64,000 bases of DNA, from sequence record OR892555.1, one strand, 5' to 3'. Below the pieces are notes generated by a model. It saw nothing but the letters and a program-made list of their open reading frames with translations, had not been told where the DNA came from and searched no databases. How positions within the stretch are numbered: position 1 is the first letter of the stretch; each line of letters begins with the position of its first letter. Both the position numbers and the translations under genes were made by a program. This stretch comes from Escherichia phage EP1. Positions 9,394-48,773 of this stretch are shown here, in pieces.

Positions 9394-12093
9394 ATGGAAA
9401 ACGTAGATTTTGAAAACTTGCACTTGGTAGGTGATACAGAAACTGATGGGTTACTCCTTGAGTTCACAAAAGCACATGTAATGGCATTTGCAGATTACAA
9501 AGATGATGGTGATGAACCTGCTGTGTGGGTATTCACCGATGAACCTATTCTTGGTCACAAATGCACTAAGTACATCAAAGGTGGTCTTCGTGAAGGTGTA
9601 GAGTTTGCTCTCAAGGCAAAGCGTCTCTGTATTCATAACGGTCTTGGCTACGACTGGTGGGTGTTCAATCACATTGCACCGGACTTATGGAACTTTGACA
9701 ATCCGAAGTGTAAACCTTGGGGAGACTTCTTTCAGGATTCTCTTATTCAGTCTCGTGTTCAGTGGATGGATAGACCTACACCAAAAGGTTACAAAGGTGC
9801 GCATGGTTTGGCTGCATGGGGTGCTCGTGTTGGTGTTCGTAAACCAGAGATTGAAGAGTGGGGTGTTTGGAATGCTGACATTCTGAACCGTGTTGTTGAG
9901 GATATTCGAATCAACGCCAAAACTAAACGTGCTCTTGATAACGAATACCTGAAGTTGAAGAAGTGTGGTGTAGACACTTACGAAACCTACATGCGAGCTA
10001 AAGAAACATCTTTCTGGATGAGTCAGCAAGCCATCAACGGTTGGAAAGCTGATATTGAACTTATGCAGTTCCATGTCAAAGAACTTGACAGATTGACTGA
10101 TGAATTAGCTGCTGAAGTTGAGCCTCATCTACCACCGACTATTAAGACGAAAGGTAAAGTTACTGGTGAAGAGTTTGCAAGGGCTTGGAACGAGTATGTT
10201 GAGACATTTGGTAAAGCAGATGGTCTGAAGCGCATCACTAAGTATCCAAAAACTAAGTTCCGTCAGCAGGTTCGTAATGGTGAGATGCAGACTTACGCTA
10301 TCAAACCTTTTGGTAAACCAACTACCAAGATTTTCAACATTGAGAAGCGTAACTGCTACACTCCAACTAACACGGTTACTGGAGAAGAGTACAAAGAAGG
10401 CTTCGTGGCAATGAAAGATGCTCGTGCAGTTTGTAACGAGTTGAATGCTGCGATTGATAAGAAGTGCAAAGACTGGAAACCAGTTAAGACCGTGAAGACT
10501 GTGAAGTACTACAATAATCACGTAGTAAATCACTTTGAACTTGAGTCAAGTCGTTACACAGGTTTGATTGATGCACCTTATACACCAATTGAGTTCGAAG
10601 TTTCACGCATGACTCAGGTTGCGGTTGTGAAGGATTATCTGAAAACTCTTGGCTGGATTCCTGATGACTGGAACTACAAGAAAGACTCTGATGGTCGTCC
10701 GGTGAAGGTTTGTCGCTTCAAAGACAACAAGAAGATGATTCGTAAACATCCGAAATGGCAAGAGATGGTGGAACGTTGCGGATTGAACTATGTTGAACAT
10801 GAAGGTGTACAGTATATCGAACACAACTGGTCTGTGAAGAAGTACACAGATTTGCTTGAGCCTTGCTTGATTCGTACTTCACCGAAACTGACTGAATCAT
10901 CTTACGATACAATTGAAGGTGAACTTGGACAGAAGATTGCGAAGTACTACACTTTGATGCACCGACGCAGAACTATTGAGAACTCAAAGGATGATGAAAA
11001 AGGTTGGTTAAACCAGATTCGTCCAGATGGTCGTTTGAGTGCTGGTGCAATGGTGTTTGGTACTTCAACTGGACGCATGACACAATACGGAATTGTGAAC
11101 GTACCTTCTGGTGCTGCTGTTTACGGTGAACCAATGAGGGCAGTCTGGATTTGTGAAGAAGGAACAAACGTAGTTTCCGTTGACATGAACTCTGCACAGC
11201 TTGTTTTACTGTGTAACTTTATGGGTGATAAAGAGTTCACCAAAGCGGTAACTCAGGGTAAAGAAGAGATTGAGTTTATCCGTCAGGAAGATGGCAGATA
11301 TTACTGCAAACACTTTGACGAATACCTGAATCCAGAAGTTGATAAGTATCTGCGTTATGACTCTGAAAACGACTTGTACGTAGTTTACTCAGGCACTGAT
11401 GCTCATACACTGAACAGTATCTACTTCAGCTTGAACGAAGAACAAGATATCTTGACTTGTCGTATGACTCAGGATGAAAATCTTCTTCACGAAATTAGTA
11501 AAGGTCGTAAAAAAGCTAAGAATGGTATCTATGCGTTACTGTTCGGTGCTGGTGATGAAAAGTTTGCTAAAACGATTAAAGCTGCGACTACTCAGGAAGG
11601 TGCATTGACTAAACAGACTTACTTTGTGCGCTTGCCGAAGATTAAGAAACTGTTAGATGACTTGGAAGCTGACTTTAAGGCAACTAAGAAAGCACTTGAA
11701 GAGGTGTTTGGTAAAACTGCTGCAATTGCTAAAGGTGGTTTTGTCAAGGTAGCTGGAGCATGGTTGTGGTGTAAGTCTCCACACAAACTGTTAAACTATT
11801 TGCTGATGGGTTCAGAAAGTCAGGTTCAAAATGAGGCAATTAACCTTGCTTGTCGTAGAGCCTATGACGAAGGGTTGATGAAATTGAATGGACGTAAGCC
11901 AGCTATCGGCGCTAGGCTTCTTCTGGCATACCACGATGAGAATAGTTGGGAATGTCCAGAGAGTATGACTCAAGAAGTTAAAGCTATTACTGACTGGATG
12001 TACGGACAGGCTTCTAAAAACCTTGGGCTAAGGAAAGAAACTATGGTAACAGGTACTGGTAAGGTTGGTAAGAGTTGGTTGGAAGTGCACTAA
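9394..12093 (+). CDS. DNA polymerase, family A, with N-terminal 3'-5' exonuclease domain
   Basis: Exo motif VGDTETDGL; Pol A-like motifs VSVDMNSAQLVLL (motif A-like), KNGIYALLFGAG (motif B-like), LLAYHDENSWE (motif C-like); 899 aa. Confidence 0.85.
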   Translation: MENVDFENLHLVGDTETDGLLLEFTKAHVMAFADYKDDGDEPAVWVFTDEPILGHKCTKYIKGGLREGVEFALKAKRLCIHNGLGYDWWVFNHIAPDLWNFDNPKCKPWGDFFQDSLIQSRVQWMDRPTPKGYKGAHGLAAWGARVGVRKPEIEEWGVWNADILNRVVEDIRINAKTKRALDNEYLKLKKCGVDTYETYMRAKETSFWMSQQAINGWKADIELMQFHVKELDRLTDELAAEVEPHLPPTIKTKGKVTGEEFARAWNEYVETFGKADGLKRITKYPKTKFRQQVRNGEMQTYAIKPFGKPTTKIFNIEKRNCYTPTNTVTGEEYKEGFVAMKDARAVCNELNAAIDKKCKDWKPVKTVKTVKYYNNHVVNHFELESSRYTGLIDAPYTPIEFEVSRMTQVAVVKDYLKTLGWIPDDWNYKKDSDGRPVKVCRFKDNKKMIRKHPKWQEMVERCGLNYVEHEGVQYIEHNWSVKKYTDLLEPCLIRTSPKLTESSYDTIEGELGQKIAKYYTLMHRRRTIENSKDDEKGWLNQIRPDGRLSAGAMVFGTSTGRMTQYGIVNVPSGAAVYGEPMRAVWICEEGTNVVSVDMNSAQLVLLCNFMGDKEFTKAVTQGKEEIEFIRQEDGRYYCKHFDEYLNPEVDKYLRYDSENDLYVVYSGTDAHTLNSIYFSLNEEQDILTCRMTQDENLLHEISKGRKKAKNGIYALLFGAGDEKFAKTIKAATTQEGALTKQTYFVRLPKIKKLLDDLEADFKATKKALEEVFGKTAAIAKGGFVKVAGAWLWCKSPHKLLNYLLMGSESQVQNEAINLACRRAYDEGLMKLNGRKPAIGARLLLAYHDENSWECPESMTQEVKAITDWMYGQASKNLGLRKETMVTGTGKVGKSWLEVH

Positions 12094-12102
12094 GGTATTG
12101 AA

Positions 12103-12615
12103 ATGATTACAGAAATTCGATTAAAGGAGATTTTAAAGTATGACCCCGATACAGGGGTCTTTACTTGGAAATTCAGAGAAGGTAATGCAAACTTTAACTC
12201 CAGATTTGGAGGCAAGAGGGCTGGAAACTACAGAACAAATACTGATGGTCACAAATCTGTCCAATTGCTGATTGATGGAAGGAGCTACCAAGCAAATCGT
12301 TTAGTTATCTTGTATATGGATGGATACCTACCCGATAAATCTTTACAGGTTGACCACAAAAACTGTGATGGATGGGATAACAGGTATTTGAATTTGAGGG
12401 TTTGCACAGCTTCACAAAACTCTTGCAATCGGTCTAAGAAGTCTCTATCAGGTTTACCAAAAGGTGTTCAGAAGATAAGGAAACGTTTTAGGGCAATGCT
12501 TCGTTTGCAAGGAAGGAATTACCATCTTGGGATGTTTGACACGCCTGAAGAAGCCCACGAAGCTTACTGTGAAGCTGCTATAAAACTCCACGGAGATTTT
12601 GCAAAACTTAGTTGA
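12103..12615 (+). CDS. HNH homing endonuclease with AP2-like DNA-binding domain
   Basis: HNH region VDHKNCDGWDN...CTASQN; C-terminal AP2-like RAMLRLQGRNYHLGMFDTPEEAHEAY; starts 10 nt after the polymerase stop. Confidence 0.7.
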   Translation: MITEIRLKEILKYDPDTGVFTWKFREGNANFNSRFGGKRAGNYRTNTDGHKSVQLLIDGRSYQANRLVILYMDGYLPDKSLQVDHKNCDGWDNRYLNLRVCTASQNSCNRSKKSLSGLPKGVQKIRKRFRAMLRLQGRNYHLGMFDTPEEAHEAYCEAAIKLHGDFAKLS

Positions 12616-12645
12616 CAAGGTGCTCATGGAAGAGTACCATATACT
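12612..12645 (+). promoter_or_regulatory. sigma70-like promoter candidate
   Basis: TTGACA at 12612-12617, 17-nt spacer, TACCAT at 12635-12640 (TATACT at 12640-12645). Confidence 0.35.
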
Positions 12646-12667
12646 ATATATTGTATAGGAGACTTGT

Positions 12668-12868
12668 ATGACTATTTCAGAAATTGAAGTTCAACTGCAA
12701 TGTGCTGGATACTCTCAAAGTGAGATTGAGTCTATGTGCATCATCATTTGCAGTAGCCATAAGCACCTCAAGCTTTCTAATGAAAATCTTCGCAAGGTTG
12801 ATATTTTTATTGCTGGAGGTAAGATTATCAAGGATAAGACAGGCTACCTTAAAGGTGAACGTCTATGA
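12668..12868 (+). CDS. hypothetical protein (66 aa)
   Basis: ORF track; RBS GGAGA upstream. Confidence 0.35.
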   Translation: MTISEIEVQLQCAGYSQSEIESMCIIICSSHKHLKLSNENLRKVDIFIAGGKIIKDKTGYLKGERL

Positions 12869-13074
12869 GCCATCGTGGAAGAACTCATCTCGCCATGATG
12901 CAAGGGGCTTCAAAAGAGACTATCAAGAATCGGAAGAAAACTCTTTTTGACAGAATGAATAGACTCATTGATAATGCAAGCCTACCTAACTCTGAAAAGG
13001 TTTTCTTGAAAGGGAATCTGAAGAGTATCGCACAGGAACTTATTGACATTGAATTTTGGAGACACCAAAAATGA
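12865..13074 (+). CDS. hypothetical protein (69 aa)
   Basis: ORF track; ATGA overlap with upstream gene. Confidence 0.35.
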   Translation: MSHRGRTHLAMMQGASKETIKNRKKTLFDRMNRLIDNASLPNSEKVFLKGNLKSIAQELIDIEFWRHQK

Positions 13075-13322
13075 GCAATAAAGAGCAAGAAGCTTTAGCA
13101 ATCTTCAAGAGCGAAGACAAATCAATAGCTTTTGTCTCAGAGGCTTGGTGCAGAGATTTGGGGTATGATTGGTATCTCTTCTTATGCGCTAAGAAAGATG
13201 TTAAACCAGTTGATGAAACCCGATTCAAAGAACTGTATAATATCTGCCAAGAGGGTTATGAAGAACATTACGAAGGTTCTTTGAATCTTGTAAATTCAAA
13301 AGCTTCAGACTTATTTTATTGA
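13072..13322 (+). CDS. hypothetical protein
   Basis: Start moved to MSNKEQ after GGAGA RBS. Confidence 0.35.
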
Positions 13323-13332
13323 GAGGTTCAAA

Positions 13333-13578
13333 ATGTTAAAATTATTGATACCAGCTTTAGTATTCTTACTGGTGGGGTGCAACCCTTCTTATGAGAATAA
13401 GGATGCCTCTTACAGACTTCCTCCAGAAATGCAAGACTGCAAGATTTACAAGCTTAATGGTGATGCCATTAGCAAAGATGTTATTGTAGTTCGCTGCCCA
13501 AATTCTCAGACGACAACTTCTTACAAGTATGGTAAGAATAATCAGTCACACACCACAGTTTTTGATGGAGGATATTGA
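13333..13578 (+). CDS. putative lipoprotein (81 aa)
   Basis: N-terminal MLKLLIPALVFLLVGC: hydrophobic signal with LVGC lipobox-like cysteine. Confidence 0.45.
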   Translation: MLKLLIPALVFLLVGCNPSYENKDASYRLPPEMQDCKIYKLNGDAISKDVIVVRCPNSQTTTSYKYGKNNQSHTTVFDGGY

Positions 13579-13579
13579 T

Positions 13580-13786
13580 ATGCAGGTTCTGGTAAACTTT
13601 ATCTATAAGTATGAAAACATCTTCAGCACTATGACTGTAGCTCAACGCAATCCGGTTATCCCACGAGAAGGGGAGACTGTTGAGATTAATGATTGGAACT
13701 ACAGAGTTGAAGAGGTCAAGCATAAACTTAAAGATGGTTATGACCACCAAGTTGTAAATGTGTATTTAAAAGGTAAGTGGCAATGA
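13580..13786 (+). CDS. hypothetical protein
   Basis: Start at MQVLVNF preceded by GGAGGA RBS. Confidence 0.35.
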   Translation: MQVLVNFIYKYENIFSTMTVAQRNPVIPREGETVEINDWNYRVEEVKHKLKDGYDHQVVNVYLKGKWQ

Positions 13787-43195: not shown

Positions 43196-43271
43196 TGGAG
43201 CGTCGAAAGGGAGTCGAACCCTCATAATCCTGTTTTGCAGACAGGTACATAGCCATTTCTGTCATCGACGC
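43196..43271 (-). tRNA. tRNA-Cys (anticodon GCA)
   Basis: Acceptor halves 43200-43206/43265-43271 pair; T-arm AAGGG-AGTCGAA-CCCTC (reverse-complement view); anticodon loop CUGCAAA; CCA encoded. Confidence 0.7.
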
Positions 43272-43277
43272 ATTAAT

Positions 43278-43369
43278 TGGAGGAAGATACCAGACTTGAA
43301 CTGGTACGCCGATTTCTCGGTTACTGACAGTTTAGCAAACTGTCCCCTTACCTTTAGGGTTAATCTTCC
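43278..43369 (-). tRNA. tRNA-Ser (anticodon GCU), long variable arm
   Basis: 92 nt; acceptor GGAAGAT/ATCTTCC; anticodon stem ACAGT/ACTGT with loop UUGCUAA. Confidence 0.7.
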
Positions 43370-43371
43370 AA

Positions 43372-44103
43372 TTATTTATTCAAGGCATCCTTCATTTCTG
43401 GAGTTGCAATTGAATCAATCACGCCAGATTTACAGGAATCATCAAACCAGTCTGGTAAGATACCTGCAAGGAAACCATTAATATTTGTTTTCAAGTAATC
43501 AGCAATCAAAGCCGCTTCATCTGCAATCATCTGAGCCACTTCATTAGCATAGGCAGTAATCTTTGCCATACCATCATTAATCGCTGTAACAGCTTGTGTA
43601 GCGAGGTCAGAGATGGTTGCTAGTCCTTTATCAATTGCATCCTGTAAGTCGCTTAGAACGCTGTTTACGGCATCTATAGAGGTATTAATCAAATCCATAG
43701 CCTTGTTACCGTATTCAGTAGCAACTCCCATGATTCCACTAAACGGTGTACAACCAACTTGTTCACCTGCTGCTCCCATAACATTAGAGTAACCTTTAGC
43801 TACTTGCATACGTTGTGAAAACTCATCTACAGACTTCTGTCCATATTGAGTCAGTGTGTTAGTTGTCGTTGTAGTGCTTCCAAGGCTAGTTGAGAAGCTA
43901 CTTAACAAGGCTGTAGTCAAACCAGCAGCAATAAGTTTATCTTTTACTGTAGGGTCTGATACCGAGCTAATAGAGCTTACTAATGAAGTAGAAGCGGCAA
44001 CTGTACCACCAAGAACTGCTGCACCAGTAATAAGAGGGTTAGAGAACCCGTTACCGGATTTAAGGAGACTGAAAATCTCTTTACCTTGTCCTGTCATCTC
44101 TTT
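43372..44103 (-). CDS. Ser/Thr/Ala-rich protein embedded in the tRNA array
   Basis: ORF trimmed to MKEMTGQ so it does not overlap the adjacent tRNA; low-complexity S/T-rich centre. Confidence 0.4.
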   Translation of the reverse strand, partial: KEMTGQGKEIFSLLKSGNGFSNPLITGAAVLGGTVAASTSLVSSISSVSDPTVKDKLIAAGLTTALLSSFSTSLGSTTTTTNTLTQYGQKSVDEFSQRMQVAKGYSNVMGAAGEQVGCTPFSGIMGVATEYGNKAMDLINTSIDAVNSVLSDLQDAIDKGLATISDLATQAVTAINDGMAKITAYANEVAQMIADEAALIADYLKTNINGFLAGILPDWFDDSCKSGVIDSIATPEMKDALNK

Positions 44104-44122
44104 CATTATGCACCTATAAAAT

Positions 44123-44199
44123 TGGTAGCCCATCGGGATTTGAACCCTGTTCTCATGTTTTTCAGACACGCGCTTTAACCATATAAGCTAATTGAGCTA
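44123..44199 (-). tRNA. tRNA, tentative Phe (anticodon GAA), atypical T-stem and acceptor/D-arm linker
   Basis: T-loop ATTTGAA with 3-bp GGG/CCC stem; anticodon loop CUGAAAA; acceptor TAGCTCA/TGGGCTA pairs with one G-U. Confidence 0.45.
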
Positions 44200-44206
44200 T
44201 TAAAAT

Positions 44207-44283
44207 TGGGGTGACCTACGGGAATCGAACCCGTATAGACCATGTTCACAGCATGGGTCATTATCCATTTATGATAAGGCCAC
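44207..44283 (-). tRNA. tRNA-His (anticodon GUG)
   Basis: T-arm ACGGG-AATCGAA-CCCGT; anticodon stem CCATG/CATGG with loop CUGUGAA; D-stem TCAT/ATGA. Confidence 0.7.
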
Positions 44284-44314
44284 ATGTAAGGACTCTCGTA
44301 AGAACCCTTAGAGG

Positions 44315-44390
44315 TGGCAGCAGCGTAAGGATTTGAACCTTAATCTTTCAGCTTCAGAGGCTGGAGCATTGCCAGTTATGCTACACTGCT
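44315..44390 (-). tRNA. tRNA-Gln (anticodon CUG)
   Basis: T-arm TAAGG-ATTTGAA-CCTTA; anticodon loop CUCUGAA; D-stem GCAT/ATGC. Confidence 0.65.
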
Positions 44391-44397
44391 ATTAATT

Positions 44398-44468
44398 TGG
44401 TACTCCATATCGGATTCGAACCGATACATAACACAGATTTTAAGTCTGGCCTCTCTGCCAATTGGAGT
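44398..44468 (-). tRNA. tRNA-like gene, anticodon loop reads UAA (Leu-type) but D-arm appears truncated
   Basis: Perfect T-arm ATCGG-ATTCGAA-CCGAT and 6-bp acceptor; only about 10 nt available for the D-arm. Confidence 0.4.
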
Positions 44469-44478
44469 AATGGAGCAT

Positions 44479-44554
44479 TGGCGGGGGATGTTGGAATTGA
44501 ACCAACTTCTTCGATTTCAAAGACCGAGGTTTTAACCTTGTAAACTAATCCCCT
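44479..44554 (-). tRNA. tRNA-Gln (anticodon UUG)
   Basis: T-arm GTTGG-AATTGAA-CCAAC; anticodon loop CUUUGAA; D-stem GTTT/AAAC. Confidence 0.6.
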
Positions 44555-44562
44555 TTAAATCT

Positions 44563-45120
44563 TTACTTTCTTAGTGGATGAATAAAGAATGCCAACATAA
44601 TTCTTTCCCTTGAGAATGCTCTTTCTTCTGGGACAACACTTTTAAGTTTCCATCCAACATAAATTCTCCAGTAAAACTGTTTACCAAAGACTTTAATTGA
44701 TGGGATAAAAGCGAATAATCCCCAAGCATTCCTATTCCACATCAGGAGATAACCTGTCTGATTATCTTCAGGGTTAGAACTTACGTTGATATTACCTTTC
44801 CACTTAGTAACATCTTTTACATCTCTTCCTAATACATGGTAAGAGAAGTTATAAGCTTTGTTTCTCCAGAGCCACCCAACTCTCTGCATATAAACACCAA
44901 GCTTACCAATCTTTCTAATCTTAGCCCATCGCTCAACGTGACCTTTGTCACCGTCAATTGGGTTATCATAAGTTTCCATCCATCTGAATCCAAAAGGTAG
45001 ATGGCCTTTCTTCTCACTGTAGAATGGAACAACAAAAGGTGCTAAGATTACTGCTAAGATTGCTGCAAATGGCTCTAGCAAAGCTAGGAAAATCCATGAA
45101 GCATACTTCAAATATCTCAT
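44563..45120 (-). CDS. membrane protein embedded in the tRNA array
   Basis: ORF trimmed to MRYLKYAS to avoid tRNA overlap; N-terminal TM segment ASWIFLALLEPFAAILAVILAPFVV. Confidence 0.4.
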   Translation of the reverse strand: MRYLKYASWIFLALLEPFAAILAVILAPFVVPFYSEKKGHLPFGFRWMETYDNPIDGDKGHVERWAKIRKIGKLGVYMQRVGWLWRNKAYNFSYHVLGRDVKDVTKWKGNINVSSNPEDNQTGYLLMWNRNAWGLFAFIPSIKVFGKQFYWRIYVGWKLKSVVPEERAFSRERIMLAFFIHPLRK

Positions 45121-45140
45121 TTTAAATAGCCTCTTTAAAT

Positions 45141-45216
45141 TGGTGCAGAATAAGGGATTCGAACCCCTATTAACAGCTTCGTAGACTGTTGCTCTATCCA
45201 TTTGAACTAATCCTGC
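45141..45216 (-). tRNA. tRNA-Arg (anticodon ACG)
   Basis: T-arm AAGGG-ATTCGAA-CCCCT; anticodon loop CUACGAA. Confidence 0.6.
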
Positions 45217-45330
45217 TTCCCTACGAGAACACCATACAGTTTTTCACAAACTTTGTTTTTACGTCTGTTTAGGTATGACGCTCTAAACTTTTTTGCGATG
45301 GAGTTATTGCTCATAGTGCTCTCCTCAAAT

Positions 45331-45408
45331 TGGTGTTCCAAGACGGATTCGAACCGTCACTAATACAAGGTTTGAGCTTGCATCCTCTGCCAATTGGGAT
45401 ACTGGAAC
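45331..45408 (-). tRNA. tRNA with anticodon CAA (Leu-type) but short variable region
   Basis: Well-formed cloverleaf in reverse complement (acceptor GTTCCAG/TTGGAAC, D-loop AATTGGCAG, T-loop TTCGAAT); anticodon loop CUCAAAC; 78 nt. Confidence 0.55.
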
Positions 45409-45410
45409 AT

Positions 45411-45485
45411 TGGTACTCGCTGAAGGAATTGAACCTTCTTTACCAACTTGTAAGGATGGGGCTTTACCGTATAAACTAAGCGAGT
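45411..45485 (-). tRNA. tRNA-Val (anticodon UAC)
   Basis: Acceptor ACTCGCT/AGCGAGT perfect; T-arm GAAGG-AATTGAA-CCTTC; anticodon loop CUUACAA. Confidence 0.65.
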
Positions 45486-45490
45486 ATGAA

Positions 45491-45578
45491 AAGAGGTCTG
45501 AAGTTGTGCCGCTAACTCAACTCCGTGGAATTTGTTACGGTCTTCAGTTGACTCAAGCGGTCTTTCACTCGACCTCTG
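45491..45578. ncRNA. structured element with acceptor-like terminal stem but no T-loop (candidate small RNA or degenerate tRNA)
   Basis: AGAGGTC (45492-45498) pairs with GACCTCT (45571-45577); internal hairpin CTGAAG...CTTCAG; fills a tRNA-sized gap in the array. Confidence 0.3.
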
Positions 45579-45581
45579 AAA

Positions 45582-45658
45582 TGGTGCTGCTCACAGGACT
45601 CGAACCTGCATTTCCATCCTTACAAGGGATGTGTAATAGCCAATTATACGAAAGCAGC
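45582..45658 (-). tRNA. tRNA-Thr (anticodon UGU)
   Basis: T-arm ACAGG-ACTCGAA-CCTGC; anticodon stem CATCC/GGATG with loop CUUGUAA. Confidence 0.7.
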
Positions 45659-45664
45659 ATTGTT

Positions 45665-45739
45665 TGGAGCATCCAGAGGGAATCGAACCCTCAACCTCAG
45701 TTTGGAAGACTGTAATTTTCCCGTTTAAACTATGGATGC
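45665..45739 (-). tRNA. tRNA-Gly (anticodon UCC)
   Basis: Acceptor GCATCCA/TGGATGC perfect; T-arm GAGGG-AATCGAA-CCCTC; anticodon loop CUUCCAA. Confidence 0.65.
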
Positions 45740-45745
45740 ACTAAT

Positions 45746-45821
45746 TGGTGGAGAAGCAGGGAATTGAACCCTGTACTTAAGTTTGCAAAACTTATGTTTT
45801 AACCATGTAAACTACATCCCC
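45746..45821 (-). tRNA. tRNA-Ala (anticodon UGC)
   Basis: T-arm CAGGG-AATTGAA-CCCTG; anticodon stem TAAGT/ACTTA with loop UUUGCAA. Confidence 0.65.
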
Positions 45822-45827
45822 AATGTT

Positions 45828-45903
45828 TGGTACAGGTGGAGGGAATTGAACCCATCATCTTACTGATTAAGAGTCAGCCGCATAACCATTTTGCTACACC
45901 TGC
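45828..45903 (-). tRNA. tRNA-Lys (anticodon CUU), tentative
   Basis: T-loop AATTGAA with GGG/CCC stem; anticodon loop CUCUUAA; acceptor ACAGGTG/CACCTGC. Confidence 0.55.
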
Positions 45904-45910
45904 ATTAATT

Positions 45911-45988
45911 TGGTAGGAGACAAGGGATTCGAACCCTCAAACACCAACTTCTAAGGATGGTAGGTTTACCAATTACCGTCAATCTCCC
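45911..45988 (-). tRNA. tRNA with anticodon UAG (Leu-type) but short variable region, structure partly unresolved
   Basis: T-arm AAGGG-ATTCGAA-CCCTC; acceptor with two G-U pairs; anticodon loop CUUAGAA; D-loop AATTGGTAA. Confidence 0.45.
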
Positions 45989-46052
45989 ATTAAATCTTTG
46001 TAGAGAACTGCTAAGACGCCAAAGCAACAATGGTATCAAATGCCTTAACAAT

Positions 46053-46080
46053 TCTCTAAAAAGACCTAACTGGTCTTTGC
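46053..46080 (-). terminator. hairpin, possible minus-strand terminator inside the tRNA array (weak)
   Basis: AAAGACC-taact-GGTCTTT stem followed by short U-run on the minus strand. Confidence 0.3.
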
Positions 46081-46229
46081 ATAGTCTTGTTTAATCCGGT
46101 GACTATAACCTTTGGAGAGCTTGATATTATCTCTTCTCCGTGACACCTACTAGGTGCTTTGTTGTGCGTGTACGACAATACACGAGGGAAACCGAACGCT
46201 GTACCAGAGCGTGGGCTTAAATCTCATTA

Positions 46230-46319
46230 GGCGGTAGATAAAGGAGTCGAACCCTCACCGTATCACTACAATGGCAATTGTTTTCAAGACAATTTGGCTT
46301 CCATTAGCCGCTATCTACC
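46230..46319 (-). tRNA. tRNA-Ser (anticodon UGA), long variable arm
   Basis: Acceptor GGTAGAT/ATCTACC; anticodon stem ATTGT/ACAAT with loop CUUGAAA; about 87 nt. Confidence 0.65.
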
Positions 46320-46332
46320 CCTAATAAGACTG

Positions 46333-46737
46333 TTAAACCTCTAACAGTCCTGCATGAACTTTCCTATGACAGTTAGAACACAGTACAACACATTTTCTAA
46401 CTTCTCTCTTAATAGTCCCTCTAGAGTAAGTCTTTAAATTGCTAGGTTCAAAGTCTTTTTCATTTGGGTCTAAATGGTGGAAGTCTAATGCTACTGGTTC
46501 AGATTCACCACAAACTCTGCATTTGCAGATTCTTTTGTATCGGTTAAGAAACTCTCTGTTTCTTTTTCTGTCAGCTACCGCCCTAATTTTCCTTTTAGCT
46601 TTATAAGTTGGGTCTTCTTGATACTTCTTAGAAGAGTATTTGGATTTGCAATCTTTGCATACTGACTGGTATCCATTACCACGCTTATGAAAACAACTTA
46701 AAGGTTTTTCTTGTGAGCATTTTCTACAAAGTTTCAT
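46333..46737 (-). CDS. HNH homing endonuclease inserted in the tRNA array
   Basis: Cys-rich zinc-binding N-terminus; HNH core DFHHLDPNEK ... CSNCHRKVH. Confidence 0.65.
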   Translation of the reverse strand: MKLCRKCSQEKPLSCFHKRGNGYQSVCKDCKSKYSSKKYQEDPTYKAKRKIRAVADRKRNREFLNRYKRICKCRVCGESEPVALDFHHLDPNEKDFEPSNLKTYSRGTIKREVRKCVVLCSNCHRKVHAGLLEV

Positions 46738-46751
46738 ACAAGTACCTATTC

Positions 46752-46822
46752 TGGCAGGGGTGTAGAGATTCGAACTCTAATCAAGAATTTTGGAGACTCT
46801 ATTGCTGCCTTAGCTCACCCCT
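46752..46822 (-). tRNA. tRNA-Trp (anticodon CCA), tentative
   Basis: Acceptor AGGGGTG/CACCCCT perfect; T-arm TAGAG-ATTCGAA-CTCTA; anticodon loop CUCCAAA; short D-arm. Confidence 0.6.
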
Positions 46823-46993
46823 ATTAACACTATAATTCGAAGCTTACCGTATTGTCACAACACTGTCAAGCCTCTTCTCAGATTATTTACATGTTCTGGA
46901 AAACATGAGATACAGACCACCTCCTTATGAAGTTGACTCATCTGAATCAACACGGAGACCCGCTAAGGTCGTCTAAGTAATCTGCTAACTAAT

Positions 46994-47070
46994 TGGCACA
47001 CCCTACAGGGCTCGAACCTGTAACTCAGTGCTTAGAAGGCACTTGCTCTATCCAATTGAACTAAGGGTGC
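46994..47070 (-). tRNA. tRNA-Arg (anticodon UCU)
   Basis: T-arm ACAGG-GCTCGAA-CCTGT; anticodon stem AGTGC/GCACT with loop CUUCUAA. Confidence 0.7.
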
Positions 47071-47320
47071 ATTCTTATCTTTAAAGGCTCTCTTAGAAAA
47101 CCCTTAAAGATGCCCACCTTATTAATCATACCGTGGGCGAGTACGCCAAATTCTTTGATGAGGGGTTGGAAGACCTCACTGGTGTTTAGCCTATTAAGCT
47201 ACTGCCAGAAAAACATTATCGTTTGCATTTATTTTAGTTTGCAAAAATAGACGCTACGCTAACGAAAACTAAGGTTACTATAAAGTGGTCACATCTGAAT
47301 GTCAACAACTTTATCGAATT

Positions 47321-47396
47321 TGGTAGTGGTAGCAGGAATCGAACCTGCGATGTTCGGTTATCAGCCGAGTGTTATGACCGTCTTAACTATACCACC
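47321..47396 (-). tRNA. tRNA-Ile (anticodon GAU)
   Basis: T-arm GCAGG-AATCGAA-CCTGC; anticodon loop CUGAUAA. Confidence 0.6.
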
Positions 47397-47398
47397 AT

Positions 47399-47475
47399 TG
47401 GAGGTTCAGATGGGATTCGAACCCACATTCATAGGGCTTATGAAACCCTTGCATTACCTTATCTGCGACTGAACC
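47399..47475 (-). tRNA. tRNA-Met (anticodon CAU), G-C-rich anticodon stem
   Basis: Acceptor GGTTCAG/CTGAACC perfect; T-arm ATGGG-ATTCGAA-CCCAC; anticodon stem AGGGC/ACCCT with loop UUCAUAA. Confidence 0.65.
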
Positions 47476-47554
47476 ATAATAAGTTGCCCTTTGGAGAAGA
47501 ACTATTGAGTGGGTGTTTCCAGCCGCGCAGGTGTTCTTCAGTTAAGGGCGAATT
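47476..47554. ncRNA. structured element with acceptor-like terminal stem but no T-loop (candidate small RNA)
   Basis: TTGCCCT (about 47484-47490) pairs with AGGGCGA (about 47544-47550); shares a TTCAGTT motif with the element at 45491. Confidence 0.25.
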
Positions 47555-47630
47555 TGGTAGGAGTGGAGGGATTCGAACCCGTCGCCTGTCAGATTAAAAG
47601 TCTGCCGCATCACCATTCTGCTACACTCCC
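47555..47630 (-). tRNA. tRNA-Lys (anticodon UUU)
   Basis: T-loop ATTCGAA with GGG/CCC stem; anticodon stem TCAGA/TCTGC with loop CUUUUAA. Confidence 0.65.
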
Positions 47631-47775
47631 ATTAAATCATCTTTGCAGTAACCTACGCAAACCTTGCTAAAGGGTTTGTAGAGTCATTTCCTATTAAGCT
47701 AATCTAGAATCATGCTAAGGAAATTCATCGGCACTCATGGGACGACATTTAGCTCCATAAGCCACTGCAAAGAGG

Positions 47776-47907
47776 ATTACCAGACCGTTGTTTTATCTTA
47801 AGTGCTCCCATTACACCAACACGCCGTAACGTGTGAAGGAATCGAACCTTCGCCTTTTCTTTACCAGAGAAATAGATTGTTTAATACTTGCTGTAAACGG
47901 TCTTCTG
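47776..47907 (-). ncRNA. tRNA-like RNA lacking a canonical acceptor stem, enclosed by a long-range stem (candidate Y-RNA-like or pseudo-tRNA)
   Basis: Minus strand reads AGACCGTT...[anticodon-like arm TTTCT-CTGGTAA-AGAAA][T-arm GAAGG-TTCGATT-CCTTC][hairpin ACACG-TTACGG-CGTGT]...AACGGTCT; ends pair over 8 bp. Confidence 0.4.
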
Positions 47908-47919
47908 TAAATTTGTTGA

Positions 47920-47993
47920 GCCAGACCAAGTTTTAAATTATTCAAATTAATTGGCTTGAAATTTTTAAGTTGGCTTGCTGAATTTGGTCTTCT
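47920..47993 (-). repeat. hairpin spacer module, copy B1 (CAGAAGACCAA ... TTGGTCTGG)
   Basis: AGACCAA (47922-47928) complementary to TTGGTCT (47983-47989); conserved flanks shared with copies at 47779, 48388, 48544. Confidence 0.5.
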
Positions 47994-48055
47994 GCTCCTT
48001 TAAAGAATACTCGTAAGAACTCTTTAAGGGATGGGCTAAAAAGCCCTCTCAAATT

Positions 48056-48133
48056 TGGCGGTTACGAAGGGATTCGAACCCTCATCATCTCCCGTGACAG
48101 GGGAGTATTTTAACCAGATTAAACTACATAACC
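48056..48133 (-). tRNA. tRNA-Asp (anticodon GUC)
   Basis: T-arm AAGGG-ATTCGAA-CCCTC; anticodon stem CTCCC/GGGAG with loop CUGUCAC. Confidence 0.7.
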
Positions 48134-48139
48134 TTTGTT

Positions 48140-48227
48140 TGGTGCGCCGTGAAGGAGTCGAACCTACCGAGTCATAATGACAAGTGATTTACAGTCACCA
48201 CCGCTTCCATCTACGGGATAACGACGC
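48140..48227 (-). tRNA. tRNA-Tyr (anticodon GUA), long variable arm
   Basis: 88 nt; T-arm GAAGG-AGTCGAA-CCTAC; anticodon loop CUGUAAA. Confidence 0.65.
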
Positions 48228-48297
48228 ATTTTATTCTATTCAGGCTAAGGACTTGCACCTTACAAATCGGTGAGCATTACGCTTCTCTCCCAAATCT

Positions 48298-48374
48298 TGG
48301 CGGTGAGTTAGGGATTCGAACCCTATACCATTCGGTTAACAGCCGACCGCACATGCCTTATGTGCTTCCTCACC
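48298..48374 (-). tRNA. tRNA-Asn (anticodon GUU)
   Basis: T-arm TAGGG-ATTCGAA-CCCTA; anticodon loop CUGUUAA. Confidence 0.7.
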
Positions 48375-48387
48375 ATGTTTAGTATTG

Positions 48388-48449
48388 CCAGACCGTATCT
48401 TTTCATTTTTTCCTATAAAAATTTTGAGATTGCTGTAAACGGTCTTCTG
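48388..48449 (-). repeat. hairpin spacer module, copy A2 (CAGAAGACCGT ... ACGGTCTGG)
   Basis: AGACCGT (48390-48396) complementary to ACGGTCT (48439-48445); lies between tRNA-Asn and the CAU tRNA. Confidence 0.5.
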
Positions 48450-48455
48450 CAAATT

Positions 48456-48532
48456 TGGAGGCGGGTGTTGGAGTCGAACCAACCGTTACCATGCTAATGA
48501 GACATGTGAGACACCCTTTCTCTATACCCGCG
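48456..48532 (-). tRNA. tRNA with anticodon CAU (Met, fMet or Ile-lysidine type)
   Basis: T-arm GTTGG-AGTCGAA-CCAAC; D-stem GAGA/TCTC; anticodon loop CUCAUUA; position 1-72 mismatched. Confidence 0.6.
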
Positions 48533-48543
48533 ATTCTTAATGA

Positions 48544-48607
48544 CCAGACCAAGTTTTATTTTCTATAAGCGAAGAAAGTTTTTTAACTTGCTGAATTTGG
48601 TCTTCTG
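48544..48607 (-). repeat. hairpin spacer module, copy B2 (CAGAAGACCAA ... TTGGTCTGG)
   Basis: AGACCAA (48546-48552) complementary to TTGGTCT (48597-48603). Confidence 0.5.
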
Positions 48608-48614
48608 TCAAATT

Positions 48615-48689
48615 TGGAGTCGTAGACGGGATTCGAACCCGCGAGCAACTGATTGAAGGTCAGGTGGCTAACCATTTGCCTTCTACGAC
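48615..48689 (-). tRNA. tRNA-Glu (anticodon UUC), tentative (C at position 33)
   Basis: Acceptor GTCGTAG/CTACGAC perfect; T-arm ACGGG-ATTCGAA-CCCGC; anticodon loop CCUUCAA. Confidence 0.55.
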
Positions 48690-48696
48690 ATTAATT

Positions 48697-48773
48697 TGGT
48701 CTCCGTTGAGGGAGTTGAACCCTCGACCCCTTGCTCCCAAAGCAAGTGCTCTGCCAAACTGAGCTAAACGGAA
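48697..48773 (-). tRNA. tRNA-Pro (anticodon UGG)
   Basis: T-arm GAGGG-AGTTGAA-CCCTC; anticodon stem CTTGC/GCAAG with loop UUUGGGA. Confidence 0.7.

Follow-up and report, generated by a model that had tools for sequence, protein, structure and literature searches.

The free-standing homing endonuclease genes (HEGs) of T4-like phages, Seg and Mob, are intergenic and lie beside essential replication genes, as does the gene described here, and they are found at the boundaries of exchanged sequence, with co-converted flanks; the nuclease of Seg is of the GIY-YIG type and the DNA-binding module of Mob is a zinc finger, unlike the modules of the present protein. Enzymes of the I-HmuI kind are nickases. 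The HNH-AP2 family of Magnani et al. (2004) reportedly has the same two-domain build that we find, and AP2-type endonucleases have been proposed as the ancestors of the plant AP2/ERF factors. By now the HNH-AP2 homing endonucleases have been described as a family (PMC10448857, PMC5714182, PMC2248197), and six HNH genes have been reported in FelixO1 (PMC3185647). The 'IPA-HNH' genes of ICP1 are intergenic neighbours of essential replication genes and also mark the boundaries of exchanged sequence, with co-converted flanks (PMC10448857). In the Xanthomonas phages Xp10, OP1 and Xop411 the HNN-AP2 endonucleases have two domains and no Cys dyads, and their genes are dispersed, devoid of conserved flanks and often decayed (PMC2248197).

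We have analysed a gene of this kind in a stretch of 64,000 nucleotides from Escherichia phage EP1 (sequence record OR892555.1), referred to here as the window and numbered from its first letter. The gene covers 12103-12615 on the plus strand, and we consider it, with a probability of about 0.8, a free-standing HEG of the HNH(HNN)-AP2 family that occupies a precise slot bounded on one side by the stop codon of the DNA polymerase gene (pol) and on the other by the -35 box of the following promoter. Its product shares the build of the Xanthomonas phage enzymes, including the absence of Cys dyads, and the boxes described for them (HRLAW-like, DH, DNR, NLR and E/QN) are also present (PMC2248197). 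Unlike in the Xanthomonas phages, the insertion is exact to the nucleotide, all the copies seen are intact and different lineages compete for one slot. The best match to the nuclease half among solved structures was I-HmuI (1U3E), which like our protein carries an HNH_3 domain of His-Me finger group 2 (PMC5714182) and is also associated with a phage DNA polymerase gene, that of the Bacillus phage SPO1. However, I-HmuI is intron-encoded and its C-terminal DNA-binding region is of the helix-turn-helix type, whereas the gene found here is free-standing and intergenic and codes for an AP2 domain. Like the Seg, Mob and ICP1 genes, it sits at a boundary of sequence that appears to have been exchanged, with flanks that look co-converted, and its nuclease domain is recognised by Pfam HNH_3, in contrast to that of the ICP1 proteins, which is too divergent.

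Orthologues of the window protein with 91-94% amino acid identity are found in Shigella phage KPS64 (gp36, QBP32799; 94%), Salmonella phage Mushroom (gp38, AJF40568) and Escherichia phage Alf5 (ORF095). They are located at the same place, between pol and the conserved promoter, and are already annotated as HNH (homing) endonucleases with an AP2/ERF domain. Since the family has been described and near-identical orthologues are annotated at this very position, the finding as such is already known and ordinary. Four details were not described in the papers searched, namely the empty site defined to the nucleotide, the competition of five lineages with a constant tail, the putative co-conversion tract in this genome and a hairpin fixed at synonymous sites; they are of modest interest for specialists.

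The genome is that of a FelixO1-like myophage of the Ounavirinae and is Suspvirus-like. The segment from pol to the ligase gene has 94.6% identity to Escherichia phages mistaenkt (classified in the genus Suspvirus) and CHB7, and 86-90% to Mooglevirus and Felixounavirus phages, while the exonuclease/MazG segment shares 97.4% of its nucleotides with SUSP2. Clustered at 43199-48773 on the minus strand are 25 tRNA genes, a feature typical of FelixO1-like phages. The family-A DNA polymerase gene (9394-12093, plus strand) codes for 899 amino acids (Pfam DNA_pol_A; PHROG_17, E=5e-112); its reading frame is uninterrupted, it lacks the group I intron found in some relatives, and it ends with TAA at 12091-12093. 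No Rfam intron was detected in the window, and the HEG lies after the pol stop codon, an arrangement that is not that of an intron- or intein-encoded endonuclease.

According to the list of open reading frames, the HEG has an ATG start, 170 codons and a TGA stop. A preliminary description of the window had pointed out this gene and placed its start 10 nt after the polymerase stop; both observations are confirmed, the gene being real and its ATG beginning at the tenth base after a spacer of 9 nt (GGTATTGAA, 12094-12102, plus strand). The pol stop together with the first bases of the spacer forms TAAGG, a Shine-Dalgarno-like sequence 7 nt ahead of the ATG. A scan for promoters gave no promoter-like site just upstream of the HEG. 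On its other side there is a sigma-70-like promoter candidate, TTGACA-N17-TACCAT (12612-12640, plus strand; 10 of 12 matches), that would serve the downstream genes, and the TGA stop of the HEG (12613-12615) is contained in its -35 hexamer TTGACA. The first downstream gene (12668-12868, plus strand) codes for a 66 amino acid protein of unknown function (PHROG_4230). Hiding of the ribosome-binding site in an RNA structure was also considered and rejected, the fold of 12050-12170 being no better than that of shuffled sequences (z=-0.25). A tblastn search of the whole 64-kb window with the protein gave no second HNH-AP2 gene.

Domain and profile comparisons show that the protein combines a predicted I-HmuI-type His-Me nuclease domain with a predicted AP2 DNA-binding domain. 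The HNH_3 domain, a His-Me finger of the 'HNN' type, spans residues 63-107 (12289-12423, plus strand), with E=4.3e-11 and 42.7 bits in Pfam, above the cut-off of 24.8, and PHROG_99, 'HNH endonuclease', matched over residues 1-168 (E=2e-57). In the alignment with I-HmuI, D84-H85, N93, N97-L98-R99 and Q105-N106 correspond to D74-H75, N83, N87-L88-R89 and N96 of 1U3E, and we take D74-H75, N83, N87 and N96 to be the catalytic positions of that enzyme. Residues D84, H85, N93, N97 and N109 were invariant in the 11 sequences compared. Cys dyads are absent from the HNH_3 domain, and for this reason the protein can be assigned to the 'HNN-AP2' type of the Xanthomonas phages (PMC2248197). The AP2/ERF-type domain covers residues 124-164 (12472-12594, plus strand). 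As a single sequence it obtained only 24.4 bits in Pfam (E=3.8e-5), below the gathering cut-off of 33.3. However, a profile built from 11 orthologues and allelic lineages of this locus matched the AP2/ERF structures 7WQ5, 5WX9, 7ET4 and 1GCC in the PDB at E=9e-11 to 1.7e-4, the proteins being WRI1 (E=9e-11), ERF096, TEM1 and ATERF1; the same profile matched I-HmuI at E=3e-7. The sister lineages found at the same site score 30-54 bits for AP2, and two of them, the allelic lineages B and D described below, pass the Pfam cut-off (53.6 and 41.3 bits). Since the profile matches AP2/ERF structures and sister lineages are above the cut-off, the AP2-type domain that had been proposed for this protein from the letters alone can be upheld despite the low single-sequence score.

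To define the insertion we have compared the locus in 8 GenBank and 31 IMG/VR sequences, and the junction could be resolved in 37 of them. The gene was present in 22 and missing in 15, the empty relatives including Sf14, Sf16, ESh21 and Moogle. A similar picture was obtained in a spread sample of 60 out of 302 GenBank Ounavirinae records, in which the state was read from spans and annotations (about 18 empty, about 33 occupied and 9 unresolved). About a third of the relatives have no gene at the slot, indicating that it is dispensable. Universal and syntenic presence in all relatives, named in the preliminary description as the pattern that would speak against a mobile gene, is therefore not what is observed, and the comparison with polymerase loci lacking the insert that was suggested there defines a precise insertion of 513 nt. 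In the empty alleles of Sf14, ESh21 and Moogle the promoter block (TTGACAAGGTGCTC...) starts 5-6 nt past the pol stop, and the same block is found 518 nt past the stop in the window. The next gene begins 61 nt after the pol stop in the empty alleles against 574 nt in the window, so that the insert is exactly 574-61 = 513 nt and thus as long as the ORF including its stop codon. A block of 27 nt (TTGACAAGGTGCTCATGGAAGAGTACC), conserved in empty and occupied alleles over the 37 loci, marks the right-hand boundary. As the TGA stop of the HEG is at the same time the TGA of TTGACA, the insert regenerates the -35 box. On the left, the spacer GGTATTGAA repeats the left part of the empty site (..GTGTTGAC..), TTGAA being a copy of the left part of TTGACA, and the boundaries are thus ambiguous only within this repeat of 4-5 nt. 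The 27-nt block occurs only once in the window, for which reason homing to a family of repeated phage promoters was dropped as a candidate.

The occupied loci contain five intact HNH_3+AP2 lineages, which we call A, B, B2 (a sub-lineage of B), C and D. Lineage A, with the window, KPS64, Alf5 and Mushroom, has its ATG 9-10 nt past the pol stop. In lineage B (Sf13) and the SUSP2-type sub-lineage B2 this distance is 3-10 nt, in lineage C (mistaenkt and Michonne) the ATG overlaps the pol stop, and in the FelixO1-type lineage D it is located 19 nt inside pol. Lineage D might be taken for a decayed copy, but this was rejected because it has an intact ORF of 167 amino acids from that start; no decayed HEG copies were seen at any of the 22 occupied loci. 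Protein identity between lineages is 44-58%, with 73% shared by the two related B sub-lineages. The slot is a hot spot, filled by different HNH-AP2 lineages in different phages. Even where Suspvirus-like backbones share at least 94% identity the lineages differ, with C in mistaenkt and CHB7, B2 in SUSP2 and A in the window; the described Suspvirus members have lineages B or C. The 5' junction of the window (TAA plus a 9-nt spacer) resembles that of the lineage B phage Sf13, while the other lineage A copies have TGA and a spacer of 10 nt. At the junctions with 9-nt spacers (the window and Sf13/L010) the HEG is in frame with pol, with TAA and three codons between them (window 12091-12105). Given the 10-nt spacer of the other lineage A copies this arrangement looks incidental, and a read-through fusion of pol and HEG was rejected, the frame being shared only at these 9-nt-spacer junctions.

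All five lineages share the same 3' junction. The last ~70 nt of the gene (12546-12615, plus strand), about the last 23 codons (EAHEAYCEAAIKLHGDFAKLS followed by the stop), are nearly identical at the nucleotide level in lineages that are otherwise divergent, and upstream of ~12546 the similarity between lineages falls abruptly to 40-55%. The comparison of the window with the lineage C gene of mistaenkt gives 100% identity from ~12546 onward and 42-53% before. The few synonymous variants in the tail follow the phage backbone and not the HEG lineage, which is the pattern expected of recombination within the tail, and this stretch is likely to act as a recombination arm.

Pol itself is mosaic. 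Measured per 100 nt, identity between the window and mistaenkt is 94-99% up to ~11790 and then drops to 80% for the last 300 nt. Against KPS64 it is ~85% in pol, 89-93% in the last ~300 nt and 90-94% through the HEG. At the sites that distinguish mistaenkt from KPS64, the change from mistaenkt-like to KPS64-like letters in the window falls at 11790/11799. The corresponding tract of mistaenkt matches empty Mooglevirus alleles at 93-95%, and consequently the recombinant is more likely the window lineage than mistaenkt. By per-100-nt identity and informative sites, the last ~300 nt of pol (11799-12093, plus strand) are recombinant, and the segment from ~11799 through the HEG looks like a co-conversion tract. 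Between loci that differ in HEG status, identity is unusually low over the final 210 nt of pol (75-76%, against 83-84% in the stretch 270-540 nt upstream); among lineage A loci the final 210 nt reach 87.5%. The last five pol codons of the empty alleles read CTT GAA GTx CAC TAA, and the pol ends of the occupied alleles have TTG or TAT ... mostly CAT TGA. The mosaic, the divergence of the flank and these codon differences are footprints to be expected of co-conversion and/or of target-site immunity, but they do not prove a transfer driven by the endonuclease. Ordinary homologous recombination between co-infecting phages could yield the same mosaic without any endonuclease activity. On the other side of the gene, the small genes at 12594-13593 show 95-100% identity when the window, mistaenkt, KPS64 and Sf14 are compared, whereas in pol KPS64 and Sf14 reach only ~85% identity to the window; this suggests a recent exchange of the segment bordering the HEG. 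With the empty alleles, the exact insert, a lineage different from that of the nearest genomes and the recombinant tract, the reading of this gene as a free-standing HNH-AP2 HEG inserted just past pol, already put forward in the preliminary description, is supported.

Lineage A copies have a dN/dS of 0.06-0.17 at dS values of 0.28-0.81. The ratio of ~0.1 and the invariance of the predicted catalytic residues indicate that the HEG is maintained by selection. A dS of up to 0.8 between genera, similar to that of the backbones, indicates mostly vertical inheritance with occasional transfers. The following mechanism would be compatible with these data. Transcription of the HEG would proceed together with that of pol, and its translation would start at the TAAGG-N7-ATG site, which overlaps the pol stop. 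During mixed infection the enzyme would bind the genome of the competitor through its AP2 domain and nick or cut it at or near the pol-stop/promoter junction, which is intact only in alleles without this lineage. Recombinational repair from the HEG-bearing genome might then copy the gene and adjacent pol sequence into the cut genome. Its own genome would be immune, the insert splitting the site and the last pol codons being different. One lineage could replace another through two homology arms, the 3' end of pol on one side and the shared ~70-nt tail plus the promoter on the other. The polymerase gene is here the presumed target, with the alternative that the cleavage site may lie elsewhere in pol. 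No cleavage or homing experiments on this protein or its orthologues were found in the literature searched.

A second conserved element is found inside the ORF. At 12142-12159 (plus strand) there is a perfect 18-nt hairpin, GACCCC-GATACA-GGGGTC, followed by TTTACTTGG, with a dG of -11.4 kcal/mol. It was flagged as terminator-like in a terminator scan, it was the sole element kept in the centroid fold and it is unique in the window. The hairpin encodes residues D14-V19 (D-P-D-T-G-V) of a YDPxTGVFTW motif, and does so with codons that are otherwise avoided: in five genes of the window none of the 64 Pro codons is CCC, and GGG and GTC account for 6% of the Gly and 9% of the Val codons. All five lineages have the same stem but differ in the loop, and the stem recurs unchanged in the HNH-AP2 paralogues that occupy a second site in the genome (dune_50, Sf14 gp075 and seven IMG/VR loci). 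We have examined the codons of 15 Ounavirinae genes at the 26 columns where the amino acid never changes: nearly all of them use 2-4 synonymous codons, and each of the four hairpin columns keeps to a single codon (59 of 60 cases). The hairpin as a feature of the whole family was rejected, as 60 relatives showed free codon choice and no complementarity; these were phages from outside the Ounavirinae, mostly richer in GC. The comparison points to selection at the nucleotide level, or to very local gene conversion, specific to the Ounavirinae. Candidate roles are an attenuator that limits HEG expression, an operator for the AP2 domain or an anchor for recombination. Combining the hairpin with the data on the slot, we tentatively propose, as a possibility short of an established model, that the HNH-AP2 genes of the Ounavirinae might form an allelic cassette system, with at least five specificities for one slot and two arms (the pol 3' end and the tail plus promoter), in which the hairpin would be a cis-element, either attenuator or AP2 operator.

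Group I introns were found in pol at eight of the loci, always at the position corresponding to 11535|11536 of the window (pol residues 714|715). Two of them have no ORF: the one of Mushroom (L004, 3143-3453; 311 nt, Rfam RF00028 with 62 bits) and one of 268 nt (L037, 2843-3110). In five IMG/VR loci (L032-L036, ~1697-2500) the intron has 780-805 nt and contains an ORF for a 179 amino acid Endonuclease_7 protein. The Mushroom polymerase was published as 'two genes', without calling an intron (PMC4392139).

Other explanations of the locus are conceivable, the most serious being a domesticated or beneficial nuclease, which would cut competing related phages in co-infection (marker exclusion) or serve replication or recombination. 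The polymorphism would then reflect an arms race between specificities, a scenario that overlaps with homing and differs from it mainly in the beneficiary. Strong purifying selection in all the copies and five specificities competing for a single slot are in line with this idea, and an occupancy of about two thirds of the relatives, with every lineage intact and no decay among the 22 occupied loci, also fits a gene that is useful to the phage. However, a slot that is empty in about a third of the relatives shows that the gene can be dispensed with, and occupancy does not track phylogeny; we consider a beneficial role possible but the lesser option. Another view, in which a single ancient insertion was followed by vertical descent and divergence in place, the empty sites being precise deletions, would account for the right-hand junction and 3' tail common to all lineages and for the high dS between genera. 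It is hard to reconcile with a distribution of lineages that contradicts the backbone phylogeny, three of them being found inside one genus-level backbone, and with the sharp mosaic breakpoints at ~11799 in pol and at ~12546. Besides, it would demand independent and exact deletions of 513 nt restoring the same junction in several genera, and such an absence of mobility appears quite improbable.

Two further explanations would change the function or the target of the protein. It might act mainly as an AP2-type DNA-binding regulator, controlling either the neighbouring promoter or its own synthesis, with a vestigial nuclease function. Autorepressing endonucleases have a precedent in I-TevI, and both the position of the HEG stop codon, inside the -35 box of a promoter-like block that is highly conserved, and the conserved GC-rich palindromic hairpin within the ORF could be accommodated by the idea. 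In PMC10448857, which cites Magnani 2004, AP2 domains are said to favour GC-rich DNA, and this reported preference would agree with binding to such a palindrome. Nevertheless, the D-H...N...N residues are invariant and the HNH_3 domain is conserved throughout, at a dN/dS of ~0.1, and in the phages with empty sites the promoter works without the protein, so that we regard a purely regulatory protein as unlikely. The remaining alternative is collaborative homing, for which the free-standing psbA endonuclease of cyanophages is the precedent: the enzyme would target the intron site of pol at 11535|11536, ~570 nt upstream. The group I intron found at that site in relatives and small KPS64-like patches at 11595-11715 in the window would be compatible with it. 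But the presence of the intron is independent of the HEG, introns accompanying lineages A, B and C as well as empty sites; an Endonuclease_7 gene of their own is present in the longer introns; and the solid recombinant tract begins at ~11799 and not at 11536. All this makes collaborative homing very improbable, and a HEG homing to its own slot past pol is the explanation that we prefer.

For annotation purposes the routine call of HNH-AP2 homing endonuclease can be maintained, with the addition that the gene is dispensable and polymorphic. In FelixO1-like phages the terminal ~300 nt of pol and the small genes beside it appear to be recombinant and should be avoided in phylogeny and in species demarcation. 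With its exact empty sites, five intact competing lineages, shared tail and conserved hairpin, the locus is a compact natural experiment. The five lineages differ in their predicted DNA-recognition strands, and the locus is suited to the study of target specificity in AP2-type endonucleases, of the displacement of one lineage by another and of the control of their expression.

Other elements of the replication module were also compared. In many relatives, among them dune, Sf14, EC6 and typing phage 8, an extra HNH-AP2 paralogue of ~500 nt separates a GIY-YIG-like gene from the exonuclease gene (L040, 1699-2214; L041, 1673-2164). The window is empty at this site (~2488-2498), where the GIY-YIG-like and exonuclease genes overlap by 11 nt. 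The preliminary description had taken the GIY-YIG gene, together with the HEG, as a sign of active traffic of selfish elements in the replication module. Such traffic is supported by the polymorphic HNH-AP2 sites and by the group I intron in the pol of relatives, but the GIY-YIG gene does not contribute to it. The gene exists at 1998-2498, on the minus strand (SegE_GIY-YIG, E=5.7e-26). However, 257 of 302 related records have it in syntenic position, partial matches in Erwinia phages included, and by the criterion of the preliminary description itself such a near-universal, syntenic core gene is not evidence of traffic; it looks fixed rather than mobile and is possibly domesticated. Its annotation varies between 'NAD synthetase' and 'GIY-YIG homing endonuclease'.
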